Origin: a virus
Lineage: Duplodnaviria > Caudoviricetes
Length of the DNA stretch: 56,658 nt
Direction: 5' to 3' (one strand)
IMG/VR virus record: IMGVR_UViG_3300035565_000019
Coordinates: 1-56,658 of that record
Shown here: one piece after another, positions 23,704 to 41,046 of the stretch
Layout of the letters: every line of letters begins with the position of its first letter
Numbering within the stretch: the first letter of the stretch is position 1
Position numbers and translations under genes: made by a program
The notes under the pieces: generated by a model
The model's database searches: none
What the model was told of the DNA's origin: nothing
What the model saw: the letters and a program-made list of their open reading frames with translations, nothing else

Positions 23704-25181
23704 GCAACTACCTTGCGCCGACATTCGGCGTTGGATACCAAGGTTTTAATGCGCAAGGCTTACCGCTTGCCGGCGGTAAACTTTACACCTACCAAGGCGG
23801 CAGCACCAGCACTAACCAGGCTACTTACGCTACCAGCGATACTAGCACCCCTAATGCCAATCCTATAATCCTGGATTCTTCTGGCCGACCAACTACTGAA
23901 GTCTGGCTGCTTCCGCTGCTTAATTACAAATTTGTATTGACTGACTCATTAGGCAGCGCCCTTGGTTCTTGGGACTATGTAGCCGGCATTAATAGCGTGG
24001 CCGCCGCTACTCCGGTAGAGTGGACAGCTTCGGGACTTGCGCCAACATATGTGTCGTCTAACGTGTTCACAGTTCCAGGCAACCAGACTACGCTGCTCCC
24101 TATAAATAGGCGTGTCCAATATTTCTTGGCAGGCGTTCCATATTATGGATATATCTCAAACTCAGTCTATACGTCTGTTACCACAATCACTGTAGTGCCA
24201 GATTCTGTGGCAGTCGACGCCACGATAAGCGCAGTATCTTACGCCTTCCTGAACTCTGTCAATCCAAGCGTACCACAGCAATTGCTGGTAGCCGTAGCTT
24301 CGCAGACCCACGCAGCTGGCGCCGCCACCCCCGCCGACGCGGATGAATTAAATCTGACGCAAAGCCCTTCTTGGACGCTGAAGAAGTTTACGTGGGCGAC
24401 ACTGAAGTCGACGTTGCTTACATACTTCAGTGCGCTGACAGGAACTTGGGCGATTAGCATTACCGGGAATGCAGCGACAGCCACTAATGCAGCGACAGCC
24501 ACTAATGCAGCGACAGCCACTAATGCAACTTACACAACCGGTAGGTCTACAGTAGCATCAGCAACCACGCCGGACATTTTTGCATTTACAGTTAAAGGAA
24601 CTATTGATTACACCGGAACTGTTCTATGCACAGGTTTTGTGGCTGCACCGGAAGATGGGGCAAAAAGAACCTTAATATGCGCTAGTGCATGCTCATTCAC
24701 AACTAGCGCAAATCTTCAAATAGAAGGTGTACCAAGCGGTACAACCATTACTATGGCGGCAAATGCCGAGGTAAATGTGGTTGCGATCAACTCTACCATA
24801 TTCAAGATGACTTATAGTTTGTCTGGGACGTTTACGGCTACAGGGACTGGGTTTACAGCCGGGGTTACAGGAACAGCTTATTATAAGGCTGAAAACGGTT
24901 TGGTTACATTACATTTACCTAGTTTAGGCGGAACTTCAAATGCCGCTACTTTTACTATTACTGGATTACCTGCCGCCGCAGGTACATCTAATTCTGGTTT
25001 GTATTGGACACGTTGTATTGACAATGGCGGTTTAACTTTTGCAGAAGTTTTAATAAGTGGTGTCACAATCACTTTAACCAGAGTCTCCGCAGTCCCTGTT
25101 GAAACAGTATGGACAGCATCTGGAGCAAAATCATTTGGTTATGGGGGAAGTTATACAACAATTGTGTATAACTCATTCTAG
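23700..25181 (+). CDS. Tailspike/tail fibre with a P22-type head-binding N-terminus
   Basis: PLAGGKLYTY and NANPIILDSSGR N-terminal motifs; Thr-rich body. Confidence 0.75.
   Translation: MSNYLAPTFGVGYQGFNAQGLPLAGGKLYTYQGGSTSTNQATYATSDTSTPNANPIILDSSGRPTTEVWLLPLLNYKFVLTDSLGSALGSWDYVAGINSVAAATPVEWTASGLAPTYVSSNVFTVPGNQTTLLPINRRVQYFLAGVPYYGYISNSVYTSVTTITVVPDSVAVDATISAVSYAFLNSVNPSVPQQLLVAVASQTHAAGAATPADADELNLTQSPSWTLKKFTWATLKSTLLTYFSALTGTWAISITGNAATATNAATATNAATATNATYTTGRSTVASATTPDIFAFTVKGTIDYTGTVLCTGFVAAPEDGAKRTLICASACSFTTSANLQIEGVPSGTTITMAANAEVNVVAINSTIFKMTYSLSGTFTATGTGFTAGVTGTAYYKAENGLVTLHLPSLGGTSNAATFTITGLPAAAGTSNSGLYWTRCIDNGGLTFAEVLISGVTITLTRVSAVPVETVWTASGAKSFGYGGSYTTIVYNSF
24468..24527 (+). 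repeat. 18-bp tandem repeat x3.3 encoding NAATAT
   Basis: AATGCAGCGACAGCCACT at 24468, 24486 and 24504, then a partial copy. Confidence 0.95.
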
Positions 25182-25537
25182 AACCTCGCACTTATACCCA
25201 ACTGATGATTATGAAAATCCTCTCTAAACTCGAAACCAATACTCACGTACTGAAAACCGTGCCGCCACTCTTTACGAAGCGCATAGGAGAGCCTAACATG
25301 CGCCAATGCCATTCCAGCAAAGTAACGATTGACTTGCAAAACACTGGGGTGTTCGCCGAGGGCAAATGTAGAGGTGCATTCACGAAATTTATTAGGATGC
25401 TTTGCTATGTTTCGTGTCTGAAGCCAGTCAATAGCATCAAGAAAAAAATAACTTCCTTCACGATATGTGTCCTGACGTGTCCATTCATCAGCAAAACAGG
25501 ATGTTGATATGATAAGTAAAGCAAGAAATGTTTTCAC
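25178..25537 (-). CDS. Moron-like exported protein, antisense to the late operon
   Basis: GTG start after AAGGAG, signal-peptide-like N-terminus (KTFLALLIISTSCFA), C-terminal Phe, own promoter. Confidence 0.6.
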   Translation of the reverse strand: MKTFLALLIISTSCFADEWTRQDTYREGSYFFLDAIDWLQTRNIAKHPNKFRECTSTFALGEHPSVLQVNRYFAGMALAHVRLSYALRKEWRHGFQYVSIGFEFREDFHNHQLGISARF

Positions 25538-25563
25538 AGTTAGCTCCTTAATAATCATTATAT

Positions 25564-25592
25564 ATTATATCGCTTTATAGAGAAAAGTAAAC
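25564..25592 (-). promoter_or_regulatory. Class B promoter GTTTAC-N17-TATAAT
   Basis: Exact motif on the - strand; same architecture at 32526-32554 and 45786-45814. Confidence 0.7.
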
Positions 25593-25595
25593 CAT

Positions 25596-25712
25596 ATGTT
25601 TACCAAGGTACTAACGGCAATGTTGTTGATCGCTTTGGTTGTAATGATGGTGCTTTGTGGTTTTTACGGTTGGATGCATGATGAACTTCAAATTAAAAGA
25701 GTGTTAAAATGA
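25596..25712 (+). CDS. Small single-TM peptide (lysis module)
   Basis: 38 aa MFTKVLTAMLLIALVVMMVLCGFYGW..., ATGA-coupled to the next gene. Confidence 0.4.
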   Translation: MFTKVLTAMLLIALVVMMVLCGFYGWMHDELQIKRVLK

Positions 25713-26080
25713 CAGAAAAAAGAGAAGCGGAACGCACTGCCGAATACGACGCGCTATTTCACATCGTTCGGGAAATGACCGCGAAGATCTCCGACCATAT
25801 GGTAGAAGAGGAGCGCAATCGGGCAAAGGATATGGCTACCATAACGGAAGCCCTGCGCCCTATGTACGATATAATGGACTCCCTTCCAAGGGATGAACGA
25901 GGGCTTCCGTCGCCATACCTTCATCGCGCTCAGCATGAAGGGCTTAGTGCATCTAAAGGAAATTCAAGGCTGTTCAAAAACGAAATAATAAAGAAAACGG
26001 GCGAGTATGCAGTCCTGGCAGTAATCGTACTATTGGCATCAGGTAATTGGGAGCATATTTTAAAGAAGCTTATTGGGTGA
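25709..26080 (+). CDS. Membrane-anchored lysis-module protein
   Basis: C-terminal TM segment; upstream of the putative endolysin. Confidence 0.5.
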   Translation: MTEKREAERTAEYDALFHIVREMTAKISDHMVEEERNRAKDMATITEALRPMYDIMDSLPRDERGLPSPYLHRAQHEGLSASKGNSRLFKNEIIKKTGEYAVLAVIVLLASGNWEHILKKLIG

Positions 26081-26092
26081 CGGAGGTTTCAT

Positions 26093-26479
26093 ATGTGGCT
26101 CTTTGAACAATGTACCGGAAAACTGCGCGATCCTACAGGCGCTATCATAGCCGCAGGTTATGCAGGCGGCAATTGTGGCAAGAATCCTGAAGGCGTTAAT
26201 AATCCCGCTATGCAAGCTATCAAATCTGTTGGCCCTTTGCCTGCCGGTATTTACACCATGGAAGAAGTGCTAGAACAATCACATTTAGGTCCATTCGCCA
26301 TACGCTTAGTTCCTGATGCGGCTAATGTAATGTGCGGCCGCAGCGGGTTTTTCATTCACGGGGATACGACGCCGTCAGGCAACGCATCAGAGGGCTGTAT
26401 CATCATGCCAAGAGCGGTCCGCGAAGCCATGTGGGCTTCTGCTGACCATCGAATCGCAGTGTTAAAGGAGGCTTTATAA
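26093..26479 (+). CDS. Tlde1/DUF2778-like L,D-transpeptidase-fold peptidoglycan enzyme (putative endolysin)
   Basis: GPLPAGIY, RSGFFIHGD and ASEGCII (HxxxxxxxSxGC) motifs; next to a holin. Confidence 0.75.
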   Translation: MWLFEQCTGKLRDPTGAIIAAGYAGGNCGKNPEGVNNPAMQAIKSVGPLPAGIYTMEEVLEQSHLGPFAIRLVPDAANVMCGRSGFFIHGDTTPSGNASEGCIIMPRAVREAMWASADHRIAVLKEAL

Positions 26480-26958
26480 TGGACTGGAAAGACATAGCAA
26501 AAGATGTTGCAAAAGTAGCGCCAGCTTTGGGCGGTGTATTAGGCGGGCCTGCCGGCGCAGGGCTTGGCGGGCTGATCGCTGCAGCTTTGGGATGCGGTCA
26601 GACGCCGTCCGAAGTACAGCAAGCCCTTCTGACCAATCCTGACGCCGCAGTAAAGCTTAAAGAGATCGAAGCACAAGTACAGCTGGCGCAAATCTCTGCC
26701 GCTTCGGCCCAGGTCATAGCGGTCAACCAAACTTTACAGGCCGATGCGCGCGGGGATACATATTGGCAGAAAAGCCATCATGCGTTCGAATCAACATTTG
26801 CATTGTTGATCGTGGCTTCCATCTATATCCTATTGCCTGTTCTCAAGATACCTGTGCCGCTTGTAGACCCAATGGTTTGGATGATGATCGGCGGCATATT
26901 GGGCGTAACGGCCTGGCAGCATGGCGAAGTCAATAAAAAGATAGCCGATCAAGCTTAG
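26479..26958 (+). CDS. Putative holin (3TM/GTA-holin-like)
   Basis: MDWKDIA..VAPALG..LGGPAG start, two C-terminal TM segments. Confidence 0.65.
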   Translation: MDWKDIAKDVAKVAPALGGVLGGPAGAGLGGLIAAALGCGQTPSEVQQALLTNPDAAVKLKEIEAQVQLAQISAASAQVIAVNQTLQADARGDTYWQKSHHAFESTFALLIVASIYILLPVLKIPVPLVDPMVWMMIGGILGVTAWQHGEVNKKIADQA

Positions 26959-27074
26959 CGCTCACCAAACTTATCACGGCCAAGCACTTCAACTATAATC
27001 CAGAAGAAAATATAAATGGCGTATGCTTGAAGTATTGTTGCTATTATAAAAAACTGGATAAGTTTGGCCAACAT
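26955..27074 (-). CDS. Small TM peptide
   Basis: 39 aa MLAKLIQFFIIATILQAYAIYIFFWII..., last gene of the - strand operon. Confidence 0.4.
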   Translation of the reverse strand: MLAKLIQFFIIATILQAYAIYIFFWIIVEVLGRDKFGER

Positions 27075-27087
27075 ATTTTTGATCCTT

Positions 27088-27522
27088 TCAATAATCATAT
27101 TGTAGTTTTTCCCATTTGCGTCCTGCCCGTAGCCAAAGGTCTTTAGGCAACGGATCTATATGCTCTTCCAGGAAGACAATACGGTTGCATGATGTGTTCA
27201 ACAGCAGCTTTAGGCATGGCCGGCAAGGGCTAATAGTGGTAAATACTGATTTTATAGTCCATGGATCTCGGCACTGAAGTATCATGTTCTGCTCTGCATG
27301 GACTGCAAGACATGAGTCTTGGCCTGGCGGTAATTCAAATCCTTTGCATGTATTTTTATTATCGCAGTGCTTTATGCCATGCGGGACTCCATTATAGCCA
27401 ATGCTAAGCACATACCCTCTGGCGTCTACTGCTACAGCACCAACGCTTCTTCGTATACAAGTTGCGCGGGTAGCTGCAATTCTAGCTAATGTCATAAAAT
27501 ACTGATCTTTAGTTGGTCTCAT
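27088..27522 (-). CDS. dCMP deaminase
   Basis: RATCIRRSVGA, GYNGVP, HAEQN and SPCRPC motifs. Confidence 0.9.
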   Translation of the reverse strand: MRPTKDQYFMTLARIAATRATCIRRSVGAVAVDARGYVLSIGYNGVPHGIKHCDNKNTCKGFELPPGQDSCLAVHAEQNMILQCRDPWTIKSVFTTISPCRPCLKLLLNTSCNRIVFLEEHIDPLPKDLWLRAGRKWEKLQYDY

Positions 27523-28088
27523 TCTTTCACCTCATGATCGAATATTGGAAATGGCCCAAGTCCCACAGCCGCGTCGTGGTTTGGCGCTACCCAGCCTGCC
27601 GGCTTTACAATATCCAGCTTAGACCCACGCTTTGACTGTGACGCATTCTCGACCCGTATCTTGGCCATATTGGCGCGCTGTACTTCATGCCACAACATAG
27701 GCCACGGAAGTCCCATCATCAATGCAGTACCATGCACTACATAGATTAAATCTACAAGCGCGTCAGCTGCTTCATGCATGTCACCCTTTGTATGTCCGTC
27801 TTCGAACTCGTTCAGCTCTTCCTGCATGAATTTCAGACGAAACTGGAATGCATCTTCCAGCAAGAAGGACGGCTCTTTTGCCATAGGTATCTCGAACTTC
27901 TGATGGAATGCCAGTACATCATTACGCTCTTTGAATGCGCCTACCATCGGGCGTACCATGGCTACTGGTTGCACGCCATTTCCATCACTAGTTCTGTCTT
28001 GCATTTCATTCAGCGCTGCTTCAACATCTTCTGCCAACTCGATGTCAGTCTTGTTAGTGTTGATTAGCACTGTCAATATTTTTTGCAT
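27519..28088 (-). CDS. MazG-like/PRA-PH-family all-alpha dNTP pyrophosphatase
   Basis: FMQEELNEF, ADALVDLIYV, EVQRANMAK and KPAGW motifs. Confidence 0.8.
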   Translation of the reverse strand: MQKILTVLINTNKTDIELAEDVEAALNEMQDRTSDGNGVQPVAMVRPMVGAFKERNDVLAFHQKFEIPMAKEPSFLLEDAFQFRLKFMQEELNEFEDGHTKGDMHEAADALVDLIYVVHGTALMMGLPWPMLWHEVQRANMAKIRVENASQSKRGSKLDIVKPAGWVAPNHDAAVGLGPFPIFDHEVKE

Positions 28089-28098
28089 GATTTTTCTC

Positions 28099-29466
28099 CT
28101 ATACGTTAAGCGGCGCTGAAACTGCCGCATGTGAAATGTAGTTTACCAGCTTTGCCTGCTCTGGTTTAAAGTTGAAGATTGTCGCTGCTGCATCAAGCTC
28201 CAGCTTCGGCCCTTTGATCTCTTCCCTTTCCAGCACTTCTCGCACTTGATCCTGGTGATTCAAATAGATGTGCGTATCGCCAAGGAAGAAAGTCAAGAAG
28301 CCACTGTTAAGGCCTAAGGATTGCGCCAAGAGACGCTGCAGAAGCGCATAGCTCGCTATGTCGAACGGCAAGCCTAAGAAGAGGTCTACAGAGCGCATAT
28401 ATACGGCCAGATCGAGCCTTTGGTTGTCTCCGATGAACGCCTGGAAGAACATATGACAAGGCGGCAGGCACATCTGACTTAGCTCCCCTGGGTTCCATGC
28501 AGTCACGATGTGGCGCCTTCCGTGCGGCTCTTTGCTCAGGCCTTCTACAAGATTGACAAGTTGGTCTACGTACTGCGCATGCTTTATTGTTTGCACATCC
28601 AGCAACTTAAAACCGTAGCGCGATTTAGCATTCTTTCGGCCTGTCCAAAGGTCACAAAAATTCTTCCCATCTATAGCTTGCTCCGCACAAAACTGATGCG
28701 GGTTTGTAAAGCTGAAAACCTCACCGTCTTCGCGCTCAACAGTATATTTAGTGCAGTCTTTTTTCGGGTGGTTATCTTCAGCAGACACCCAGGCACAATG
28801 CTCTGGCCCGTAACGGAATCCATCCCCTCGTGTATCTTTATCTAGCTGGTAAGCGTGGCTGTCAGCAGCGAGAATAGCCTCTGACCAACCTGGCAGCTTT
28901 ACAGCGTCTTCTGCAAAGGCCTCAAACTCAAGCCAGCGATTATGTACAAAAACGCCGCGAGCTCCATAGTAGGAATAGTTGCGACTATTCAAATTATAAC
29001 ACCGCGCCATCATTCCTTGCCATGTCTTGCCTAGTGGGTGGCTTGCTGAACCGCTGCCATTAGCGATGTTCAAAAATGTTAGCGCTATACCCTCTCGCAA
29101 TTTAGGCCTTGGCTGTTCACGCACTTGAGGCACAGGCCACTTGCGCCACATGTTCCCATAAATTCTGCCCAGGTCTCCTTCAAATCGTGCAAATGGCAGC
29201 CAATAAGGGGAGTTGCCGTTGCCGTCCCAAATAGTGCAACCCATTTTGTGGAAGTCTTCCAGGTTGTCATAACCTTGGAGAAAACAGGCTAGCTCGGCCT
29301 TTACCTGTTCGAATCCCAGTTTCTTCAATGTTACAGCCGGGAACGTCGTGTGATTATCGAACACCAGCTGTTCGCCGAATAAAGCATACGTACCTACGCC
29401 TGTGCGGTCCTGGCGCAGCTCCCCGAATTGCATAGTCTTTTCTAAAATCCTGCGCCATTGTTCCAT
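28099..29466 (-). CDS. thyA: Thymidylate synthase homologue (Asn-to-Asp variant) with an in-frame endonuclease insertion
   Basis: DRTGVGT, YG..WRKW, RRHIVTAWNP, LPPCH, RSVDLFLGLPFDIASY and GDTHIY motifs; ~187 aa insert. Confidence 0.9.
   Translation of the reverse strand: MEQWRRILEKTMQFGELRQDRTGVGTYALFGEQLVFDNHTTFPAVTLKKLGFEQVKAELACFLQGYDNLEDFHKMGCTIWDGNGNSPYWLPFARFEGDLGRIYGNMWRKWPVPQVREQPRPKLREGIALTFLNIANGSGSASHPLGKTWQGMMARCYNLNSRNYSYYGARGVFVHNRWLEFEAFAEDAVKLPGWSEAILAADSHAYQLDKDTRGDGFRYGPEHCAWVSAEDNHPKKDCTKYTVEREDGEVFSFTNPHQFCAEQAIDGKNFCDLWTGRKNAKSRYGFKLLDVQTIKHAQYVDQLVNLVEGLSKEPHGRRHIVTAWNPGELSQMCLPPCHMFFQAFIGDNQRLDLAVYMRSVDLFLGLPFDIASYALLQRLLAQSLGLNSGFLTFFLGDTHIYLNHQDQVREVLEREEIKGPKLELDAAATIFNFKPEQAKLVNYISHAAVSAPLNV
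28573..29133 (-). mobile_element. HNH-like homing endonuclease domain inserted in frame within the TS gene
   Basis: WQGMMARCY, YYGARGVFVHNRWLEFEAFAED and LDKD..G...YGPEHCAWVS..DN motifs; boundaries approximate. Confidence 0.75.
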
Positions 29467-29476
29467 CCAGTTCTCC

Positions 29477-29671
29477 TTATAAGTAACCAACGATTACGCC
29501 AACTGGTGGCACAAATATACCGATAATGCGAAGCGCAAGCAAGCCAACGTGGCCTGCTAAGTCTTCTGTTGCTAGCTTATAAATGTTATCTCCATAGCCA
29601 AACAGAGCAGCTGTTAAAATGCACATTATCAGCAGCAGCCCAATTATATTACTCCAGTCATCTGATTTCAT
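29477..29671 (-). CDS. Small two-TM membrane protein
   Basis: RBS AAGGAG; RIIGIFVPPVGVIVGY motif. Confidence 0.6.
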   Translation of the reverse strand: MKSDDWSNIIGLLLIMCILTAALFGYGDNIYKLATEDLAGHVGLLALRIIGIFVPPVGVIVGYL

Positions 29672-29689
29672 TTTGTCTCTCCTTTATTT

Positions 29690-29827
29690 TTAGCCGTAGC
29701 CGCCACCGCTGCCGCTGCCGCTGCCGTCGCCGTCGCCGTAGCCGTAGCCGCTGCCGTCGCCGTTGCCGTAGCCGTAGCCTATGCCTATGCCTATGCCTAT
29801 GCCTATGCCTATGCCTATGCCTGCCAT
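29690..29827 (-). CDS. 45 aa Gly-X repeat peptide, MAG(IG)7YGYGNGDGSGYGYGDGDGSGSGSGGGYG
   Basis: Read manually; ATG overlaps the end of the upstream gene, TAA at 29690-29692. Confidence 0.6.
   Translation of the reverse strand: MAGIGIGIGIGIGIGIGYGYGNGDGSGYGYGDGDGSGSGSGGGYG
29777..29821. repeat. Perfect hexamer microsatellite (GCCTAT)x7
   Basis: Directly visible; continues as a degenerate GCCGNN array down to 29693. Confidence 0.95.
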
Positions 29828-30183
29828 ACTTTCACACTCGCAATAGACGCTTGCGCCTTGGTTGTACAGTCCAGCAATTCAATCGCGTTCAACAATTCAG
29901 CACGATTTACCTCGCAAGGGAATTTACAGGCATTCGGCTTTGAGAATCCATCCGTAGCCGCTTGAGATAGGCTGGCAGCGCCCTCCCAATACCAGAGACG
30001 TCGAGCCTTACGCAGGACAACCTCTTGTCCATTTCTAGACTCAAGATAGCCGGCAAAAACTCCTGCTGACTGGGTTCTGCAAATAATATACTTCATGCCA
30101 TTAAGCTCTGGCGCTTTATTGCTGACTGAATCAGCGCGAACATACTTTACTTCGTCAATCATAATACTTTCAGGTTTACTCAT
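29815..30183 (-). CDS. DUF6948-like protein
   Basis: ICRTQSAGVFAG and ARRLWYWEGAASLSQ motifs; family recalled as preceding Gly-rich repeats. Confidence 0.6.
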   Translation of the reverse strand: MSKPESIMIDEVKYVRADSVSNKAPELNGMKYIICRTQSAGVFAGYLESRNGQEVVLRKARRLWYWEGAASLSQAATDGFSKPNACKFPCEVNRAELLNAIELLDCTTKAQASIASVKVWQA

Positions 30184-30184
30184 T

Positions 30185-30790
30185 TTACTCTTTCCTTTCT
30201 TGAGCAGCTACAAAAAAGCCTGCATAGTTGATAATGTCCAAAGCCGTATCTCGTAAGCCTTCGAAGCTAGCAGCTTCAGGCTTCTTGGCTAGCGAGATGA
30301 AGCGCTGCGACTTCGTATGCAACATCTGCGCATATGATACGGCGCCAAATGGAAAGTACGGCGAGCGATCTACTTTATGTATGTCTTTATGGCCCATTCC
30401 TTGGTTATAGTCCTGACTTTTACGCACGCATAACAATGCCGCTTCTGCTAACGCCCCAGGATGCCCGCCTCGAGAAGCAAGTTCAGTCAACAACACTACT
30501 GAATCAATAGTGCTTAACTGCCCGGCCAAGAGCGCTGTAACACGCATTTCGGCCTCTGCGCAGTCCATATTTGCTAATCTCTTAAGCCTGAGTTGTTTTT
30601 CTGACAACCATATACATGATCCAACAGGATACTGCCTTTCGTTATTGGTAGTAGTTAGGCGGCACTCTACCCCGTCATTTTGACTAGCAAGCTGAACGAC
30701 AAGCCCCTCAACAGGGATTGCCATCCGATAGCGGTCGTATATAATGACTTCAGAATCTACTTTGAACTGCCCACTATGATAGGCATTCAT
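30185..30790 (-). CDS. Protein with a C-terminal nucleotide-modification-associated domain (DUF1599/Nmad1-like)
   Basis: RKSQDY, HTKSQRF and EGLRDTALDIINYA motifs. Confidence 0.65.
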   Translation of the reverse strand: MNAYHSGQFKVDSEVIIYDRYRMAIPVEGLVVQLASQNDGVECRLTTTNNERQYPVGSCIWLSEKQLRLKRLANMDCAEAEMRVTALLAGQLSTIDSVVLLTELASRGGHPGALAEAALLCVRKSQDYNQGMGHKDIHKVDRSPYFPFGAVSYAQMLHTKSQRFISLAKKPEAASFEGLRDTALDIINYAGFFVAAQERKE

Positions 30791-31641
30791 TACTTCTTCG
30801 CTCCTTTCTTCGGTGCAACCTTGGTCTTGGCCTTAGTTGCTGTTTTCGGTGTCGCAGCGGCCTTTGTAGCAGCCTTAGGCGCAGCTTTTTCTGCTGCTTT
30901 AGGCTTCGCTGCCACTGCATCCTTTGGCAATTTGCCTTCTTGCTTCAACTTGTTGCGATACCAGGACACAGATGAAGTCGATGTATTGGCGCCAGGGAAT
31001 TGTTTCTTGGCGGCAGCAATGACTTCTTCATTTGACTTGCCATTGATGATAAGATCCATACAGAACGCGCCGATACCTGGCTTCTTTGCTCCTGCAGGCT
31101 TATCGCCATTTGCTGCTGCAGAACGCTTGCCAGATGCTTCTGCCGCATTGGCCTTATTCTTTGACTGTTCGCCGGTCAATGCCTTGGCTTTGGATTGCAG
31201 GTCTTCGATCTTGCCGATAAGGCTTTCTTTGCCGGCTTTGGTATCTTTGACAGAATTGACTGTTGGCAGCTTAAGTGCTGTTGCCAAGTCGTTGTGCAGT
31301 TTGAAAAGTTCCTTGATGTCAAGGGCCGAGAGTTTGCTTCCGTTGCTTGCTGCCATGATGTATATCTCCATAATGATTTCATTGACCCCGTCTTCGGGGA
31401 GGTATGCACGCTTTGATGCACGCAAGAACGAGAGTGCGGCTTGTTCTGGCGTTATTGAAAAGACAATCCTGTTGAATCGCTCTTCCAATTTGGTTGTAGT
31501 CTCGCGAAACTTCACAAGACCTTGAGGCTCGAATGCCAAGTATTCAGACCACTTGTCACCGCGAAAATACTCCAGGCAAGTGTGGCTGTTATGGTCTTGG
31601 CGGACGACCAAGTCACTCAATGGTATGTTGATATGTGTCAT
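30790..31641 (-). CDS. DNA-binding protein with an HTH-like domain and histone-H1-like Lys/Ala tail
   Basis: GIGAFC...WYRNK domain shared with 45885-46256; AAPKAATK repeats. Confidence 0.65.
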   Translation of the reverse strand: MTHINIPLSDLVVRQDHNSHTCLEYFRGDKWSEYLAFEPQGLVKFRETTTKLEERFNRIVFSITPEQAALSFLRASKRAYLPEDGVNEIIMEIYIMAASNGSKLSALDIKELFKLHNDLATALKLPTVNSVKDTKAGKESLIGKIEDLQSKAKALTGEQSKNKANAAEASGKRSAAANGDKPAGAKKPGIGAFCMDLIINGKSNEEVIAAAKKQFPGANTSTSSVSWYRNKLKQEGKLPKDAVAAKPKAAEKAAPKAATKAAATPKTATKAKTKVAPKKGAKK

Positions 31642-31654
31642 GATTGTCCCTTTA

Positions 31655-32461
31655 TTAAGCCAAGATACTAGCCATGCGCTCTGTGAGAAGCCATAGCGAC
31701 TTGTTAAGGCGCAGGTCTTCGGACACAGAGGCTATCTTCCTGGTCGTGGTGCGCTTACCAGTAGTGCCTGTGCCGCGCAATCCGCCTTTGATGAAATTCT
31801 CCTGCACCCGATTAAAGGTAGTCCAAAGGTCGTTGGTGTTGTCTGCTGATCGGCGAGGATTGAGCAGTTGTGTCGGCCGTATTGGTGCTGCAGAATTGCC
31901 TTGCTCATTAGTGGGCCAGCGCAGCTCCAGGGCGGCATCGGCAAACGCAAGCTCATGCACAGGGTCTAACTTGACATTTTTGTACTGTTCTACTTTGGCA
32001 AGAATGGCCGGCATTTCCTGGATGATCTCGTAGCTGCCTTCAATCACGTTATCCCTGATGTCGCCAGTGTGACGGACAGAGATGTCGCCGAAGTTTGATG
32101 ATTTTACGGTCATGCCATTAGAGCAGATAAGCCTGAACAGCCCTGCAGACAGTTGAAAGCCGCTTGAGCGATCGTGGCTGTTCACCATGACAAGCTCCGG
32201 TATCTCTGTGCCCACTACCTTGGTATTTTCCAGGTCTTCTATGCGGCGGAAACGCAGCATATGTTTGGCGAACATCTTGCCATCTTCCAGGCGGCTGGCA
32301 GACTGTTGAGCGCGCACTGGCATAAACCCCTCATTGCGCAGCGCATCAATAATACCGATGGTGGGGATGAAAGTATAACGGGCACTAACACTATCATGAG
32401 GTACCTCGGAGAATACGCTTGGCACCATACGTTGCAACTGGTCATTGGATAATACTTGCAT
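31655..32461 (-). CDS. DUF932/DUF945-family protein
   Basis: SARYTFIPT, KHMLRFR, NSHDRSS, GLFRLICSNG and DLWTTFNRVQEN motifs. Confidence 0.85.
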   Translation of the reverse strand: MQVLSNDQLQRMVPSVFSEVPHDSVSARYTFIPTIGIIDALRNEGFMPVRAQQSASRLEDGKMFAKHMLRFRRIEDLENTKVVGTEIPELVMVNSHDRSSGFQLSAGLFRLICSNGMTVKSSNFGDISVRHTGDIRDNVIEGSYEIIQEMPAILAKVEQYKNVKLDPVHELAFADAALELRWPTNEQGNSAAPIRPTQLLNPRRSADNTNDLWTTFNRVQENFIKGGLRGTGTTGKRTTTRKIASVSEDLRLNKSLWLLTERMASILA

Positions 32462-32525
32462 TTCAGTACTCCTTCGTTTGGTTGATAAAAGAACAAATAT
32501 GCAAAATTGCTTACTTGTTACTGAC

Positions 32526-32554
32526 ATTATATACTAATCTAGACCAGAGTAAAC
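32526..32554 (-). promoter_or_regulatory. Class B promoter GTTTAC-N17-TATAAT
   Basis: Exact motif upstream of the DUF932 gene. Confidence 0.7.
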
Positions 32555-32561
32555 CCGCGCG

Positions 32562-34100
32562 CTAAACTTTATTTTTCTTGCGCATTTTGGAGTATTCTTG
32601 CATCGCATCAAGTAACGCGCCTTGTGTTCTTTTCTTCTTTCTAACGGCAATCATTTTAGCAATATCAACTGTTTTTGAAGCGACAATGTGGTGCACCACA
32701 ACACGTAAAGCTTTATTACCGGATCGCAACAATCTAGCAATAGTTTGCTCATACAATTCCAAATCCCAAGTAAGAGAATGAAAAATAATATTTGCAGCGT
32801 TATCTCCTTGAAGATTTAAGCCGTGCCCCATTGAAGCTGGGTGACCTAATAGCACTGGTATTTTACCAGCATTCCAATCCGCCACTATTCCATCTGATTT
32901 AGCTGGGCTAATGCCGCCGCCTATAAACGGCGTATCTTTACCAAACGCTTTTAGCAACCTGGCAAGATCGTGCTCAAAGTCATAAAGTATTAGCGCTGGC
33001 GCACCATTTAACTCTTCTATTAAGTCAACAGTAGCCTCTATCTTCTCTTGATGTAAATCTGCCCACTCTCGCTTTGATGCTTTGCGCCCACTCTCATCTA
33101 CTTCTTGCTGAAGATAAAGCCCTCCATTAGCGATTTGGCAAAGTTTCATAGACGCAACGCCTGCATTTACTGCAGTGATAATGCCTGACTCCAATTCAGT
33201 AATAAACTCGTCTTCCAGTTCGTCATAAATTTTCCTGACTTTAGGCGGCAGCTCTACTTTAACAATATTTTCTATCAACTGCGGTAGCTGCACATGATCT
33301 TTAGCAGATAGCCTGTGGATTACTGGCGCTATACGTTCGTAAATAGCCTCTTCGCTGTCTGCTTGTGGCAGCCATGTATAACCGCCATATCCTGTGGGGT
33401 AAAAATAAGCTGAGCGATAGTGCGATATAAATCTCCCTAGCGACCTGCCAAGATCCAAAATATACATGCTCCCAAACAAATCAAGCAGGCCGTTACTAGC
33501 AGGAGAGCCTGTCAAACCCCATCTGCGATCAAAAGTCGTCAAAACCTGCTTTAATATCTGGAACCTGTCCGTGCTTGTTCGCTTAAATTTACTGATTTCA
33601 TCGATTACTAGAGTCTTTGCGCCAAGCTTTTTGAACTGCTTCAAGTTGTAAGATATAACGGTCTTCTTGCCTTTCTTTTCTTTAGTAACGCCAAGCAGCC
33701 ACTCAAGCCCTTCAGGGTTAATAAGATAGATGTCAGCCTTGCGCTTAATGGCTTCGTCTTTATCTGGGCCATGCAATATCTCATACGTGAAATGGTTGAA
33801 GTCCTTCCACTTTTTAATTTCATTTGGCCAGACGGAATAGCACACCCTAAGTGGCGCGATAATGATAACGGGCTCATCTAGCATGCCCTCTTTCTTCAAC
33901 ACCTTTAATGCGCCTAATGTGGTACTTGTTTTGCGCCAACCTGGATTCCAGTATAGGCCTGCGGCTGCATGCTCAAGCAGGAATTTTACGCCTTCTAGCT
34001 GGAATTTTTCCGGCTTCCAGGGAATGCCCTGTTCTGACGGCGTAGTGCTCTTTGAGAGAGGCAATGGCTTCAGTTTCGCTTGTATGGACTTCGATATCAT
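32562..34100 (-). CDS. SNF2-family (SF2) helicase
   Basis: PGWRKT (Walker A variant), VIDEIS, GLTGSP, GHGLNLQ and QTIARLLRSG motifs. Confidence 0.9.
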   Translation of the reverse strand: MISKSIQAKLKPLPLSKSTTPSEQGIPWKPEKFQLEGVKFLLEHAAAGLYWNPGWRKTSTTLGALKVLKKEGMLDEPVIIIAPLRVCYSVWPNEIKKWKDFNHFTYEILHGPDKDEAIKRKADIYLINPEGLEWLLGVTKEKKGKKTVISYNLKQFKKLGAKTLVIDEISKFKRTSTDRFQILKQVLTTFDRRWGLTGSPASNGLLDLFGSMYILDLGRSLGRFISHYRSAYFYPTGYGGYTWLPQADSEEAIYERIAPVIHRLSAKDHVQLPQLIENIVKVELPPKVRKIYDELEDEFITELESGIITAVNAGVASMKLCQIANGGLYLQQEVDESGRKASKREWADLHQEKIEATVDLIEELNGAPALILYDFEHDLARLLKAFGKDTPFIGGGISPAKSDGIVADWNAGKIPVLLGHPASMGHGLNLQGDNAANIIFHSLTWDLELYEQTIARLLRSGNKALRVVVHHIVASKTVDIAKMIAVRKKKRTQGALLDAMQEYSKMRKKNKV

Positions 34101-34320
34101 AACCTAAGCTCCTTAATTGTTCATGGACGTAAAGCTGCAGTTTTCTTGGTTCTTCGCCCTCGGCTTTAAATTCAATTAAGAGCGGCCGAAATGGTAGCCA
34201 AAAAATTTCATCTGGCCAGCCACGGCGCCCTCTTAATGTCAAAGTCGTATGCGGAATGCCTCGCGACTCCGCCCAGTCATTGGCCCTGACTTGCGCCTTC
34301 TTTTCTCTGACTCGCCGCAT
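33973..34320 (-). CDS. VRR-NUC nuclease
   Basis: GWPD, IEFK and PRKLQ motifs. Confidence 0.8.
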   Translation of the reverse strand: MRRVREKKAQVRANDWAESRGIPHTTLTLRGRRGWPDEIFWLPFRPLLIEFKAEGEEPRKLQLYVHEQLRSLGYDIEVHTSETEAIASLKEHYAVRTGHSLEAGKIPARRRKIPA

Positions 34321-34994
34321 TAGTATTGGCAAGGACCTTTGTTGGCTTTGCTAAAGAAACAATAGCGGCAATTGCTGGATGGCTTTGGCGCGAACCTGGT
34401 ATCATTCAACATGGCCTTAGTCTCCTTCAGCCAATAGGTCTTCAGTGCAGGTAATTCTTTCCTGGTGTAAAGCTTCGGCTCTTCCGGCACTTCATGGCAT
34501 GCGTCAAGATACCACAACCGCACATCTACTGCATCGACCGTTGGGAACTTCAACAACGCGCCCATGGCGTAAAGCTTCAACTGCTCCAGGTGTTCTTCAC
34601 GAATGCGGCCGGTTTTGTTGTCCACTACTAGGAGCGTATTAGTGTCGCGATTCAACGAATAAATGTCAGTCTTGATGCGCAACCATGCATCGGCATCGAA
34701 CCATCCTGTCTCATGCCAGTCTTTGTCGAAGGTCCATTGATCTTCTGTTACGGCTTTGCGTTTGCGCAATTCTTTGAACTCCTCTTCAAATGACTTGATC
34801 TCAGGAGGGCACTTTTTAAGCGTGCCCTTAATAAAATCCTCAGCCATCTTACCGATCGCGCCGCCTCGCGCCATGGCATCATTGCCAGGCTCTTTTATTT
34901 TGTCTACATGCTTATACTTTGCAAAAGCAGGACATTTGCGATAATCCTGCAATCGACTGAATGACCATGCCGTGATTTTTTGAATGACGCCCAT
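34320..34994 (-). CDS. PD-(D/E)XK Cas4-like exonuclease
   Basis: WSFSRL..Y.KCP, VDNKTG, QLKLYA and terminal CRYC...C motifs. Confidence 0.85.
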   Translation of the reverse strand: MGVIQKITAWSFSRLQDYRKCPAFAKYKHVDKIKEPGNDAMARGGAIGKMAEDFIKGTLKKCPPEIKSFEEEFKELRKRKAVTEDQWTFDKDWHETGWFDADAWLRIKTDIYSLNRDTNTLLVVDNKTGRIREEHLEQLKLYAMGALLKFPTVDAVDVRLWYLDACHEVPEEPKLYTRKELPALKTYWLKETKAMLNDTRFAPKPSSNCRYCFFSKANKGPCQY

Positions 34995-34995
34995 T

Positions 34996-36873
34996 TTACT
35001 TCTCCTTAAATTTAGTTAACGCGCCCCAATTAGGGCCTGTGCTACCATCTGACAACATTGGCACGTCAAACTCAACGGACGCCATTACTTCTCGCAACAA
35101 CTGCATTTCGCTTTTCACATGCTGCTTTGGCACGCTGATGTTGATCTCGTCATGGACGGTCAACAGGAACTTGCCATGCACCTTGGCTTCGTCATATCTT
35201 ATCAGCGCTTCTTTAGTACAGTCTGCAGAGGATCCTTGGATAAGGTAGTTAAGCATCTTGTATTCGAATGTGCATACCCTATTCCTGGATTTGACGAATT
35301 TCGGCTCCTCGCAAAAGTATTGCCTTCCGCCCCATGTAGTCAATGGTTCGCCTGCTGCCGCATAATCTTTCAAATCGTCTTGCAGCGCCTCAAGCTCAGG
35401 GAAAATGGCCAGATAAGCAGCCTTGATCTTCTTGGCCGTGTTTATGTCAACGTCTAGGCGTTCTGCGAGAGCACCTAGCCCCATACCGTATAGCAGCCCA
35501 AACCCGATGGTCTTAGTGTCGTCACGTGTTACCTTTAACCCAAATCTTTCATTGATTAGCTTTGCCGCCAAGTCATGGACGTCCAGGCCAGGATGCAGAC
35601 CGAATTGTTCTTGCAGCTCGCCATCGCCGAAATGGCCAAGCACGCGTAACTCTTGCTGCATGTAGTCTCGCTTGCACCACACCTCACCTTTGAATGGCGC
35701 CATATAGAACCGCATGAATGGCAACTCAGGAAGTCCTGCTATGTGCGAAGGATGCGCATATGCATTCTTGCCTGTCTCGCGCTGCTTGAATTCCTTAGGG
35801 ACGTTCATAAACCTGGATGCAGACAACCGGCCAGTCCTGGCGCCTGCCGTATCTTTGCCGTGCCCTGCTTGACGCACTTGGTTCCACGAAGGATGCACTA
35901 TACCGCCGCATGCCGTTGCCTCAAGGAACCATGGATGTAGGAAGGTGCCATAAGCCGTGCTGTGCCTTGAGCGGTATTGCAAAGCAGTCAGCACTTTCTT
36001 ATCTGTCACTGCGCCAATCAAACTATCCTTTGCCACAGACCTGGCGCCGCCTGGCGTCAACAAGAATAACTCATTCTTGGCTTTCTTGCGCATGACAAGT
36101 GCGTCTGCCAGTTGCTCGTCAGAATCCAGGTTAAAGTCTTTGCCTACTTTCAATTGATTGCGAAGCCACTTATCTACCAGCTCTCCTGCCGCTTCGTATT
36201 TGGCATCATCTGCCTTCATCAATTTATAATCTACCGGTACTCCTTGTGTCTCGTTCTTCAACAGTACCGGCAATAAGCGCCGCTCGCGGTCATATGCTTC
36301 TTCCATGCCTCTTTCTAATACGCGAGGGTGCAGCAACTTGAAGAGTTTCAGCGTGCGTATAGTATCGCCGTTGGCATACTTGCCTACCAGTTTCCCTGGT
36401 GCCATATAAATCAAATGCCCGAACTCTTTGGCATTCTTTGGCATGAGCTTATTGTCGATGCACCATTGGCGTATCGCGTCTTGCTCTTCTGCCGGCATTC
36501 CTAAAAGCCTTTCGGAAGCTGGTTTGAGTTTGAGGTCTGGAGAATGTGGATCGTCTAGAAAAATAAGAAACATCGAATCATGAATATGCGACCAGTCGAG
36601 CATTGGCATCCCCATGTGCGTTGTCGCAACTGCGACATCAAACTTAGAGTTATGGCAAAGCACCCCATCTTTAGACTTCCATGCTTTTTCCAATGCGTAT
36701 CGCGCTTCTCTAAATGTACAGTTATTCTCGCTTTTATGCCCCCATGAATAATAACTAGGCTTCTTTCCAGGAAAGATGATAGAGACGCCGACAGGTACAG
36801 GAGGATAATCCGGCCATCCTGCTATCGGCATTGTCTCGAAGTCTATTACTGCTGGCTCTGGTATCTTGATCAC
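34996..36873 (-). CDS. polA: Family A DNA polymerase with 3'-5' exonuclease
   Basis: IDFET, HNSKFD, TGRLS, DYMQQELR (motif A), KTIGFGLLYG (motif B), VHDEI (motif C). Confidence 0.95.
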   Translation of the reverse strand: MIKIPEPAVIDFETMPIAGWPDYPPVPVGVSIIFPGKKPSYYSWGHKSENNCTFREARYALEKAWKSKDGVLCHNSKFDVAVATTHMGMPMLDWSHIHDSMFLIFLDDPHSPDLKLKPASERLLGMPAEEQDAIRQWCIDNKLMPKNAKEFGHLIYMAPGKLVGKYANGDTIRTLKLFKLLHPRVLERGMEEAYDRERRLLPVLLKNETQGVPVDYKLMKADDAKYEAAGELVDKWLRNQLKVGKDFNLDSDEQLADALVMRKKAKNELFLLTPGGARSVAKDSLIGAVTDKKVLTALQYRSRHSTAYGTFLHPWFLEATACGGIVHPSWNQVRQAGHGKDTAGARTGRLSASRFMNVPKEFKQRETGKNAYAHPSHIAGLPELPFMRFYMAPFKGEVWCKRDYMQQELRVLGHFGDGELQEQFGLHPGLDVHDLAAKLINERFGLKVTRDDTKTIGFGLLYGMGLGALAERLDVDINTAKKIKAAYLAIFPELEALQDDLKDYAAAGEPLTTWGGRQYFCEEPKFVKSRNRVCTFEYKMLNYLIQGSSADCTKEALIRYDEAKVHGKFLLTVHDEINISVPKQHVKSEMQLLREVMASVEFDVPMLSDGSTGPNWGALTKFKEK

Positions 36874-36875
36874 AG

Positions 36876-37346
36876 TTATTTTCCTAAATATTTAATGGCT
36901 TTTTTCAAAGCTAAAGGGTTATCTTTAAAATTACCAAGCCCTTTATTGCAATTTTGGCATAAAAGCCCTCTAATGCGGGCTGTAACATGGCAATGGTCTA
37001 TTGCTAAAGCTTGTTTTAAGTTAGCTTGATTAATTCCGCAAATTGCACAACAACTTTTTTGCTTATCTAACAAGGCAATATATTGCTTAGAGGTAATACC
37101 GTACTTGGATTTTCTAGCGGCGTCTCTATAATATTGCGCCCCTCGTGCTTTATAACTTGCTTGCCGCTTTTCTGGATTAGCTTCATTATATGCTTTAGAC
37201 ATAGCATTAGCTTTACCAGGATTAGCTACCATCCATTTTGCTAGCCGAATTTTTTGACATAGCGGGCATGCTTTATTAGCGCTATATCTTTTACCGTTAA
37301 GCTTTACATGCTTAGCACATATTTTACCTAAGTAAAATTCAGTCAT
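36876..37346 (-). CDS. Free-standing endonuclease VII-type homing endonuclease
   Basis: CAICG, IDHCH and RGLLCQNCNKGLG motifs; AT-rich. Confidence 0.85.
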   Translation of the reverse strand: MTEFYLGKICAKHVKLNGKRYSANKACPLCQKIRLAKWMVANPGKANAMSKAYNEANPEKRQASYKARGAQYYRDAARKSKYGITSKQYIALLDKQKSCCAICGINQANLKQALAIDHCHVTARIRGLLCQNCNKGLGNFKDNPLALKKAIKYLGK

Positions 37347-37564
37347 TTTTTAATCTCAAATAGCGTAGCCCTTTCCCTCTTAGCTCTCATACTGTTGAAT
37401 CTAGAGTAGATGCGCAAAAGATATTGCACTCGGCGCTTGTTTTCTTGCTCTATTTTAAGCATCAATTCAGCTTCCTTTTCAGTTGCTGCACGCAAAAAAT
37501 CGTTGCATCCCGGCCAGGTTTTAAGCGCCTGCTCTATATCTTTTTTTGTTTTACTTGACACCAT
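37343..37564 (-). CDS. Hypothetical protein
   Basis: RBS AGGAG; ATGA-coupled to the endonuclease gene. Confidence 0.6.
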   Translation of the reverse strand: MVSSKTKKDIEQALKTWPGCNDFLRAATEKEAELMLKIEQENKRRVQYLLRIYSRFNSMRAKRERATLFEIKK

Positions 37565-37629
37565 ATTATTCTCCTAAACAAGAATTACCAGCACCTCTCG
37601 ATGCTGGCAACCTTGCGTATGGTTGTGAT

Positions 37630-38436
37630 TCAGAATTTACGGCGAGATGCCGCTTTTGCAGGTGCAGGCGCAGAACGGCCGCGAGATGCCGCTGCAGGCT
37701 TGCGAGTCGGCTTAGCAACTTTTGCCTCGAATGCCTGATAAGGGAAGTCGATACCTTTTTCCACAATATCCGCCTTATCCAGTAATGCGCCAAGCAGCTC
37801 ACCGTCTTCGATTGCAGACTGCGCCTTGAATGATACCTTAAGCTGTGTCTTGGCATCAGGCGCTACGCTGATCTCCGTGATGAAGGCCAAAGGCGGCTTC
37901 TTGGATGCTGCCAATTGATTGACGAATCCTGCCCATGCCTTGACAGAAGTCACTGGCACTTCCAGGTAAGCTACTTCGGCAGTGGCTATGGCTTCAGGCC
38001 CGCCATCAAGCACATCGGCAGGTATCACGGCCAAACGGCGAATGTTCTTACAAGCCTTGCCTTTGCCGCCATCACCTGAATCCCATTCATTGTTCGGGCA
38101 ACCTACGCACGAATCACTGATAGGGTCAGCCACTTTGTCATGCGGCTTCATGTCGTCTTCATCACGGCCAAACGCATAGCACGCAGGTCCCTGGGCATTG
38201 TTCGGGTCGTACTTGCCTTCGTAGTACTTGTTCTCCATAATGGAGTCAATGATGACGACATCCATTTTGTTGCCATCGACAGGATTGCCCTGGTATGTCA
38301 TCTGTGCGCCTTTGACGCTGATGAAGCTCCCGGTAGATACAGATGCTTCTGACTTCTTGGCGATTGCCGCGCGTGCCGCCAATGCTTCATCCCACGCCAC
38401 TACTGCCGTTCCCGGCTTCTTTGGTTTTGCTGCCAT
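37630..38436 (-). CDS. Putative ssDNA-binding/recombination protein of the replication module
   Basis: NKYYEGKYDP, CYA, CVGCPNNEW and GKGKACKN motifs; upstream of PolA. Confidence 0.6.
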   Translation of the reverse strand: MAAKPKKPGTAVVAWDEALAARAAIAKKSEASVSTGSFISVKGAQMTYQGNPVDGNKMDVVIIDSIMENKYYEGKYDPNNAQGPACYAFGRDEDDMKPHDKVADPISDSCVGCPNNEWDSGDGGKGKACKNIRRLAVIPADVLDGGPEAIATAEVAYLEVPVTSVKAWAGFVNQLAASKKPPLAFITEISVAPDAKTQLKVSFKAQSAIEDGELLGALLDKADIVEKGIDFPYQAFEAKVAKPTRKPAAASRGRSAPAPAKAASRRKF

Positions 38437-38482
38437 TTCATTCTCCTTGAGAAGTGGGCGCCACTAAGGACGCCCGGTTAGA

Positions 38483-38830
38483 TTACTCAGCTGCTTTGAT
38501 TGCTGCCACTGCTTCCTTGATCGTTGCAGCGCTTTTGACTGCGGCGATACAACGCTTGGTCTCGGCTTTGATGGCCTTTGCTACTGCTTTCTCTACTGCC
38601 AAATCCAATGCTTCTTTGGTGATTACTTTTGCCACGTCGTTTCTCCTTACTTGGTTACCTGGTGTCCGACCAGGTTGCGGTCCTGCTATACTCTTTTCTT
38701 TTGGCTTACATCTGCTATGATACCTATTGCCGTCGACATCATCATACCAGTATTGCGTCTTTGGCTGGATTATTCCGCCACAACTGTCACATACAAACAA
38801 TGTGAATTCTGAAGAGTGAGAGTTTAGCAT
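38483..38830 (-). CDS. Zinc-finger protein with an Ala/Lys-rich tail
   Basis: CDSC...HSRC motif. Confidence 0.55.
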   Translation of the reverse strand: MLNSHSSEFTLFVCDSCGGIIQPKTQYWYDDVDGNRYHSRCKPKEKSIAGPQPGRTPGNQVRRNDVAKVITKEALDLAVEKAVAKAIKAETKRCIAAVKSAATIKEAVAAIKAAE

Positions 38831-38831
38831 T

Positions 38832-39254: not shown

Positions 39255-39261
39255 CTTAAGC

Positions 39262-39440
39262 TCCTTCTTAAATTATCAAGTAACCGACTTGATGGCGGTA
39301 TTAAATTAGGCCGGTGGTTGTCATGGTCGCCGGTACCCATTTTTACGCAGTTTCAGCTGCGCCGACATGCAGGAGGTGCTTAACATCTTTTGCGAGACCG
39401 CAGTGGAGCTATCCTTCCACGATGTTTCACTCCCCTGGTT
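39262..39440 (-). ncRNA. Candidate structured intergenic RNA
   Basis: Nested helices AACATC/GATGTT enclosing TGCG/CGCA and GTGGA/TCCAC hairpins, plus CGCAG/CTGCG and ATCAAGT/ACTTGAT hairpins. Confidence 0.4.
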
Positions 39441-39442
39441 CT

Positions 39443-39970: not shown

Positions 39971-40017
39971 GATGCTGCTCCTCCAAATCTCCGGGACAAT
40001 ATGCACACCGTTTTAAA

Positions 40018-40993: not shown

Positions 40994-41046
40994 TTCACTT
41001 CTCCTTTAAGTTTAACCGCTGGTGATTTTAGGGTGTCTAAATTACG

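Follow-up and report, generated by a model that had tools for sequence, protein, structure and literature searches.

In the thymidylate synthase (TS) family, the residue at the position of Asn177 in E. coli ThyA has been tied in print to the modification of cytosine in phage DNA. The MetaGPA study (eLife 2021, PMC8670742) reports position 177 as the residue most strongly linked to cytosine-modified contigs, with Asp in modified and Asn in unmodified ones, and describes co-occurrence of the synthase with PRA-PH and deoxycytidine monophosphate (dCMP) deaminase domains. It also cites work in which replacing this Asn by Asp (E. coli ThyA N177D, L. casei TS N229D) yielded a dCMP methylase. A preprint (bioRxiv 10.1101/2024.12.05.627091) reports a synthase no more than 3 kb away for 104 of 149 deaminase genes from modified contigs, compared with 17 of 277 from unmodified ones; production of 5-methyldeoxycytidine (5mdC) in vivo by five of seven tested deaminase-linked Asp-type synthases; and conversion of 5mdC triphosphate (5mdCTP) to deoxythymidine triphosphate (dTTP) by deaminase B5, with triphosphates required by the best-studied deaminase. 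Its stated conclusion is that such phages swap cytosine for 5-methylcytosine (5mC) and draw thymidine from 5-methyl-dC nucleotides, as Xanthomonas phage Xp12 does, and it presents module-linked deaminases as being of practical interest for methylome sequencing. Xp12 DNA is listed as 100% 5mC by liquid chromatography-mass spectrometry (PMC7653180, Table 1). The locus considered here occupies positions 27088–30790 of a virus record of 56,658 bp (IMG/VR IMGVR_UViG_3300035565_000019; Duplodnaviria, Caudoviricetes), the whole of which is called the window below. It contains a ThyA-family gene with Asp at position 177 and genes for a dCMP-deaminase-family protein, a MazG-like protein and a DUF1599 protein. 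Judged from their sequences, these four genes would make up an Xp12-type pathway, with a probability of roughly two in three, in which 5mC replaces cytosine in the phage DNA and also serves the thymidine supply. The pathway is already in print for Xp12 and the metavirome screens, and the window is a further case rather than a new principle. New here are the splitting of a MazG-like/DUF1599 pair into two genes, a different reading of the Xp12 “hydrolase”, a ThyA-like lineage of the Asp-type enzyme, and an insert carried in frame within the synthase.

The ThyA-family gene (28099..29466, minus strand; 455 aa) is predicted to encode a dCMP C5-methyltransferase (5-methyl-dCMP synthase) and matches PF00303 in two stretches (E 1.3e-77). 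Its start was placed at the ATG at 29466, with AAGGAG 7 nt ahead of it, inside an open reading frame (ORF) of 463 codons (28099..29490). A preliminary description of the locus, made by reading the sequence, had pointed to a GAC codon at 28360..28362 (minus strand) in place of the ThyA Asn, and this was correct. Plus-strand positions 28360–28374 read gtc gaa cgg caa gcc, the reverse complement of which (ggc ttg ccg ttc gac) gives G-L-P-F-D, followed by I-A-S. Three alignments place the Asp on E. coli N177: a phmmer comparison with solved TS structures (best E 2.8e-58, query residues 12–122 and 306–462), MAFFT with ThyA from NC_000913, and an alignment of 86 rows. The uracil-selecting Asn177 is thus replaced by Asp, and the neighbouring Gln165 by Met (ATG codon at 28396..28398, minus strand; cat on the plus strand); A263N is a further change relative to E. 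coli ThyA. The catalytic Cys146 and the phosphate-binding Arg21, Arg126, Arg127 and Arg166 are all present, E58, W80, Y94, H147, D169, H207 and Y209 are kept, and the C-terminal tail is complete; no other TS catalytic residue is altered. In the alignments, Asp co-varies with the change of Gln165 to Met and with a C-terminal ...APLNV instead of ...APVAI. Position 165 is Met or Leu in the window, Xp12, Pseudomonas phage PaMx74 and T4 gp42, and Gln in E. coli and most Asn-type rows.

In the 120 best database homologues, the N177 column holds 83 Asp, 36 Asn and one gap. Because so many of the nearest homologues carry it, the Asp is a lineage trait, neither chance nor a sequencing error; the latter had been named in advance as something that would undo the prediction, and it can be set aside given these homologues and the co-variation just described. 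In cellular genomes, sampled at one per prokaryote species, the best 80 loci comprise 76 Asn, four unreadable and no Asp. The window synthase is 41% identical to E. coli ThyA and reaches 234 bits on TIGR03284, a ThyA model with a cut-off of 108, compared with 99.6 for the Xp12 enzyme and 30.6 for T4 gp42. Standard annotation models give members of this ThyA-like, Asp-type lineage the name thymidylate synthase, and the lineage is so near ordinary ThyA that cytosine-modified phages of this kind would be missed unless position 177 is read. The enzyme looks like a natural version of the laboratory mutants ThyA N177D and TS N229D, in which a canonical scaffold carries the single switch, but the natural clade adds Q165M and the altered C-terminal motif, and the window enzyme also has a large insert, considered below.

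The synthase, MazG-like and deaminase genes adjoin one another in a row on one strand, ribosome-binding sites mark their junctions, and the DUF1599 gene lies upstream. The deaminase gene (27088..27522, minus strand) matches PF00383 (dCMP_cyt_deam_1) at E 4.7e-17 (62.2 bits; cut-off 25), and the HAE and PC..C zinc motifs are visible both in the translation and in an alignment to 2hvv and 4p9c. Its product is 29–30% identical to the deaminases of Xp12 and PaMx74, and is predicted to be a zinc deaminase turning 5-methyl-dC nucleotides into dT nucleotides. The MazG-like gene (27519..28088, minus strand) lies in an ORF at 27519–28130 with a likely start at the ATG at 28088, behind AGGAG. It matches PF01503 (E 4.4e-13; 49.9 bits, cut-off 21.3), and residues R98, E104, E105, E108, D123 and D127 are invariant in 18 homologues, so that the acidic metal-binding motif EE..E ... 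D...D is kept. The product is a MazG/PRA-PH-like, all-alpha nucleoside triphosphate (NTP) pyrophosphohydrolase, predicted to act on deoxycytidine triphosphate (dCTP) or deoxyuridine triphosphate; dCTP is the substrate predicted from the gene context. Both genes had been named correctly in the preliminary description. The assignment to DUF1599 (Nmad1) of the fourth gene (30185..30790, minus strand) is supported by its relatives rather than by its own score on PF07659 (E 0.0035; 18.1 bits, below the cut-off of 25). Nine of 14 aligned orthologues, the window protein being one of the 14, match the family (best E 2.6e-9), and the DUF1599 set takes 24 of the 30 Atlas feature hits for the window protein, which has about 100 additional N-terminal residues compared with its relatives. 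This gene and the MazG-like gene had both been called pyrophosphatase-like. That suits the MazG-like protein, but for the DUF1599 protein it was not supported, the comparison with the MazG-like family by hhalign giving a probability of 0.5% and E 0.12 with shallow profiles.

The closest comparison is with the genomes of Xp12 (MT664984) and PaMx74 (NC_028809). Both have the gene order “hydrolase”, synthase, deaminase, dihydrofolate reductase (DHFR), and in both synthases positions 177 and 165 are Asp and Leu. The first gene is annotated “hydrolase (HAD superfamily)” in Xp12 (46207–46980) and “hydrolase” in PaMx74 (41389–42126), but neither protein has a HAD family by Pfam at E ≤ 0.01. Each instead has a PRA-PH/MazG-like domain (E 7e-15 and 1e-15) and a DUF1599-like end. 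The window MazG-like protein is 41% identical to residues 31–139 of the Xp12 “hydrolase” (E 1e-23), the window DUF1599 protein is 42% identical to its residues 179–244 (E 2e-15), and one PHROG family, phrog_18404, spans the MazG-like and DUF1599 proteins. These domain matches show the “HAD hydrolase” of the two phages to be a fusion of MazG-like and DUF1599 parts, which is a new point. Because the two parts form one polypeptide there, the separate DUF1599 and MazG-like proteins of the window probably act together; the fusion ties the uncharacterised DUF1599 domain to a nucleotide pyrophosphatase and provides it with a testable partner. In a related locus, L081 (1490–2524), the MazG-like ORF has a long C-terminal extension in which another domain, helical and conserved, is found, and so has a further fusion partner there.

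The window thus resembles Xp12 and PaMx74 in having a TS homologue with Asp177 and a hydrophobic residue at 165, a downstream dCMP-deaminase-family gene in the same row of genes, PRA-PH/MazG-like and DUF1599-like domains adjoining the synthase, a family A polymerase and a helicase nearby, and no annotated deoxynucleoside monophosphate (dNMP) kinase. It differs in that the fused protein upstream of the synthase is represented by two separate genes flanking it, and in that the DHFR gene found next to the module in both phages has no counterpart. The Xp12 synthase, further, has Pro at 147 and a tail short by its last four residues, whereas the window enzyme has His147, the full tail and an insert of 183 residues. 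With the fusion split in two genes and all other parts shared, the window therefore has the full Xp12 module except for DHFR, and as far as the sequence goes the original proposal stands, namely that a TS homologue directed at dCMP is part of an Xp12-like module for cytosine substitution. The same signature, with an Asp177 synthase, dCMP_cyt_deam_1, PRA-PH and DNA_pol_A within a few kb, is found on the MetaGPA metavirome contigs, for which the same pathway has been proposed.

The association was also followed across 81 IMG/VR loci, found by two peptide patterns of which one was Asp-specific, with homologues of the window proteins sought within 6 kb. A deaminase was found at 38 of 44 Asp-type and one of 37 Asn-type loci, a MazG-like protein at 23 of 44 and none of 37, and a DUF1599 protein at 13 of 44 and none of 37, counts whose independence is overstated in that many loci belong to one syntenic phage lineage and one of the patterns selected for Asp. 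When the synthases were clustered at 70% identity, a deaminase was present in 26 of 31 Asp-type clusters versus one of 21 Asn-type clusters. Some 20 loci have a common order of PolA, PD-(D/E)XK, SNF2, a 283-aa protein, DUF1599, synthase, MazG-like and deaminase.

In the proposed pathway, the MazG-like enzyme would hydrolyse dCTP to dCMP, at once keeping dC from the DNA and supplying the substrate for the next step. The ThyA homologue with Asp177 and Met165 would then convert dCMP and methylene-tetrahydrofolate to 5-methyl-dCMP and dihydrofolate, the reaction of the laboratory Asn-to-Asp ThyA mutants. Host kinases would raise 5-methyl-dCMP to the triphosphate, no phage kinase having been found, and 5-methyl-dCTP would be inserted by the phage family A polymerase (34996..36873, minus strand; PF00476 E 6.7e-47), which is syntenic with the module in 23 of the 81 loci and would have to accept the modified dCTP. 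Part of the pool of 5-methyl-dC nucleotides, as mono- or triphosphate, would be turned into dT nucleotides by the deaminase; with thymidine from this source, a synthase dependent on deoxyuridine monophosphate (dUMP) would be unneeded. The preliminary description had offered a cytosine-substituted genome and a thymidylate route through dCMP as two options. In the published Xp12-type model, however, 5-methyl-dC nucleotides feed both 5mC in the DNA and the thymidine pool, and the two are therefore outputs of one pathway. It had also recognised no dNMP kinase, and none was found here: PF02223 has no match in six frames, Pfam scans of 59 ORFs, a set that leaves out most ORFs of the structural region, contain no kinase family, and the only Walker-A-like motif among ORFs of at least 60 aa (stop to stop) falls within the synthase insert. 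The absence had been taken as a gap in the case for a substituted genome, an objection that loses its force in that the deposited Xp12 annotation lists no such kinase either.

Several observations weigh against this pathway. The window synthase is only about 32% identical to the Xp12 enzyme, as judged through its closest insert-less relative (P0008), and is nearer to ordinary ThyA (41–42%); orthology with the Xp12 system therefore rests on the partner genes. No similarity between the MazG-like protein and the T4 dCTPase gp56 was detected by BLASTP, and among solved structures the MazG-like protein is nearest to DR2231 and an uncharacterised NTP pyrophosphohydrolase. In the preprint, two of seven Asp-type synthases yielded no 5mdC, and the shared ancestry of many of the 81 loci, noted above, belongs here as well. 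The lack of DHFR is a further point: PF00186 has no match in six frames of the complete genome, phmmer with DHFR queries from Xp12, PaMx74 and Bacillus phage 015DV002 gave no hit in the window, and across the 81 loci the three DHFR queries found a homologue within 6 kb at none of 44 Asp-type but 22 of 37 Asn-type loci. A hydroxymethylase, which gives back tetrahydrofolate and so leaves the folate unoxidised, would be consistent with this, although the skew may also stem only from use of the host FolA and from bigger genomes in the Asn-type set.

A dCMP hydroxymethylase is the rival that survives best. The DNA would then contain 5-hydroxymethylcytosine (5hmC), possibly decorated as in T4, and the deaminase would make 5-hydroxymethyl-dU or serve another purpose. 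T4 shares much of the logic of the window, with removal of dCTP (gp56), an Asp-bearing TS homologue acting on dCMP (gp42) and a dCMP deaminase of its own (Cd). The alignment of gp42 confirmed the Asp at 177 that had been stated for it earlier, and both specificity positions, Asp177 and Met165, are common to gp42 and the window enzyme. The preprint, moreover, first detected its deaminases by activity on 5-hydroxymethyl-dC (5hmdC) and classes the Asp-type synthases as makers of “5hmdC or 5mdC”, and the Pfam name of DUF1599 is “nucleotide modification associated domain”. The enzyme itself points the other way. T4 gp42 is 23% identical to E. coli ThyA, falls far below the window synthase on the ThyA model, and, like SPO1 gp29, the other characterised hydroxymethylase aligned, has neither the TS C-terminal tail nor His147. 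The window enzyme keeps His147 (in PCH), Trp80, Tyr94 and the full tail (...HAAVSAPLNV), and the tail is highly conserved in its clade as AP[LM][NS][VI]. Since the Xp12 methylase has itself lost His147 and the last four residues of the tail, these features are not decisive for the product. The partner genes, however, are 41–42% identical to those of Xp12, a 5mC phage. T4, furthermore, adds glucosyltransferases and a dNMP kinase, neither of which was found in the window scans; no glycosyl-, carbamoyl- or other transferase directed at a hydroxymethyl group was present in the 59 ORFs. On balance the product is put at 5mC with about two chances in three, and 5hmC is judged unlikely.

Less probable still is a thymidylate route alone, in which dCMP would pass through 5-methyl-dCMP to deoxythymidine monophosphate while the virion DNA retains ordinary cytosine. 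This would accord with the lack of a detected phage kinase for 5-methyl-dCMP and with the position of the deaminase gene, close downstream in the same row with the MazG-like gene between. A mild depletion of several 4-bp palindromes that contain C (GGCC 0.73, CGCG 0.76, GATC 0.76) may be a sign of continued selection by restriction. The MazG-like enzyme and its DUF1599 partner would, however, have no clear role in such a route, Asp177 synthases with linked deaminases are reported as enriched in fractions of modified-cytosine DNA (PMC8670742 and the preprint), and Xp12, with the same gene set and no annotated dNMP kinase, is listed as fully 5mC. Restriction-site avoidance was also tried more generally as a proxy for modification and was uninformative: among 4-bp palindromes, whether or not they contain C, observed/expected ratios ran from 0.73 to 1.12. 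The last rival, an ordinary dUMP-dependent thymidylate synthase amid ordinary salvage genes, with the Asp a tolerated variant or an assembly error, would suit the pass on the TIGR03284 equivalog model and the 41% identity to ThyA but is highly improbable, given the Asp in 83 of 120 nearest homologues and its co-variation with Q165M and the C-terminal Asn, the sharply different gene content of Asp-type and Asn-type loci, the lack of Asp among the best 80 cellular loci, and the switch of E. coli and L. casei TS to dCMP on the same replacement, as cited in PMC8670742.

The synthase is interrupted between ThyA positions 107 and 108 by an in-frame insert of 183 residues (28576..29124, minus strand; 549 nt; residues 123–305 of the 463-codon ORF). 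It had gone unnoticed in the preliminary description, as had two small genes between the DUF1599 and synthase genes. The insert belongs to a homing-endonuclease family (phrog_2081, “HNH endonuclease”, E 2.3e-35) with conserved W..M..RCY...YG.RGV and LDKD motifs and an I-HmuI-like DNA-binding end; the family profile matches residues 108–170 of I-HmuI (1u3e) at E 7e-5. Free-standing phage homologues annotated as homing endonucleases are 29–33% identical to it, one of them lying among the pieces of a split polymerase gene, and PF22083 is present in free-standing relatives. The insert has no Pfam HNH match even at E 10, and the family has the LDKD motif where a His-containing one would stand. In its HNH-annotated family, whose members are free-standing or inside split phage genes, and in the match of its C-terminal part to the I-HmuI DNA-binding region, it resembles phage homing endonucleases of the I-HmuI kind, and thyA/td, its host gene, is well known as a site that mobile endonuclease genes occupy. 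In the window it is neither free-standing, intronic nor an intein, but is read through in frame with the synthase. A group I intron was considered and rejected, as no Rfam family reaches its gathering score in the window and the endonuclease-family module nearly fills the 549 nt. An intein was rejected as well, with no Hint/intein Pfam family in the synthase and no junction residues seen.

Of the 120 nearest synthases, 47 (36 Asn-type, 10 Asp-type) have the insert at this site, and in two isolated phages, Klebsiella phage KP13-7 and Bacillus phage 015DV002, it forms part of a single annotated thyA coding sequence (517 and 564 aa, respectively). When the insert was searched against 1.84 billion representatives, 21,760 matches reached E ≤ 0.001; among the best 150, there were 70 proteins of at least 400 aa, of which 56 are PF00303 synthases and one is ThyX. 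The synthase core of the window is 74–75% identical to those of its insert-less sisters, while the insert is 57–61% identical to inserts in cores that are only 34–55% identical; conservation is higher in the insert than in the genes that host it. Just ahead of the junction, 12 residues are closer to insert-bearing synthases than to the sisters, as expected from co-conversion. In a core-only FastTree tree, the window nests among seven insert-less rows (SH-like support 98). Forcing the 25 insert-less Asp-type rows into one clade made the log likelihood 38.85 worse, with a borderline p of 0.053 in the approximately unbiased test for a group that was defined once a first tree had been seen.

These patterns suggest, tentatively and at rather less than even odds, a mobile homing-endonuclease module that sits in frame in thyA, is not spliced, forms an extra surface domain of a working enzyme, and moves between Asn- and Asp-type synthases of unrelated phages. 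The borderline test result, which concerns placement of the window outside a single insert-less clade, counts against such mobility, and the alternative is an old domain that has been lost many times. If the mobile-insert reading is true, it would represent a third mode, besides introns and inteins, for such an element to reside in an essential gene. On its sequence the insert is read here as an endonuclease module that is or once was mobile and that the gene tolerates in frame, with a putative nuclease activity, incidental to the cytosine pathway; selfish or domesticated, it would be a separate module that takes no part in the chemistry. Nothing was found in the literature searched on an in-frame endonuclease insert in thyA. 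A preprint about inteins (bioRxiv 10.1101/2025.01.02.630785) includes thymidylate synthase in a listing under IPR003669. The in-frame insert of this family in thyA is widespread and, within that literature, apparently undescribed.

The window is the whole virus record, with direct terminal repeats of 123 bp, a G+C content of 46.8% and a rating of complete; the record ends are crossed by the portal gene. The listed sequencing runs comprise two DNA runs, each with 5–6% of sampled words, and none of RNA. The region from 27 to 45 kb on the minus strand is, in Pfam scans, a replication and nucleotide module with the family A polymerase, an endonuclease VII, a PD-(D/E)XK nuclease, an SNF2 helicase, DUF932, a separate 3'-5' exonuclease, a primase-helicase and a Dam-like methyltransferase. 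The 59 scanned ORFs include neither a ThyX nor a dUTPase family. Megablast of positions 25000–45000 against 50,697 isolated phage records gave no close relatives, and tblastn among isolated phages gave no synthase more than 60% identical over most of its length. The Dam-like N6-adenine methyltransferase gene (42658–43119) would be a second layer of DNA protection. It is one of several early-region genes on the minus strand, along with those for DUF4326 (41384–41740), a GNAT acetyltransferase (40619–40993) and a DnaJ-like protein (42326–42670). Two Endonuclease VII-domain genes and one Pfam-HNH gene are found at 36876–37346 (minus strand), 52081–52581 (plus strand) and 53797–54336 (plus strand); in both Endonuclease VII-domain genes, the domain is preceded by an N-terminal part of about 75 residues. 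Counting the synthase insert, the genome has several genes of homing-endonuclease-like character.

Between the DUF1599 and synthase genes lie a DUF6948 gene (29815..30183, minus strand; 122 aa; PF22253 E 9.3e-29) and, directly upstream of the synthase gene, a hydrophobic ORF of 64 aa (29477..29671, minus strand) with no Pfam family. No homologue of either turned up in a search of the 81 related loci, and in the closest relatives the DUF1599 gene adjoins the synthase gene. Between the DUF6948 and 64-aa genes, positions 29691–29822 are a hexanucleotide tandem array, with GGCATA repeated about eight times and then GGCTAC, GGCGAC and GGCAGC units. On the minus strand, this array falls in an open frame of some 45 codons that starts at an ATG close to 29827 and would encode a Gly-X repeat peptide.

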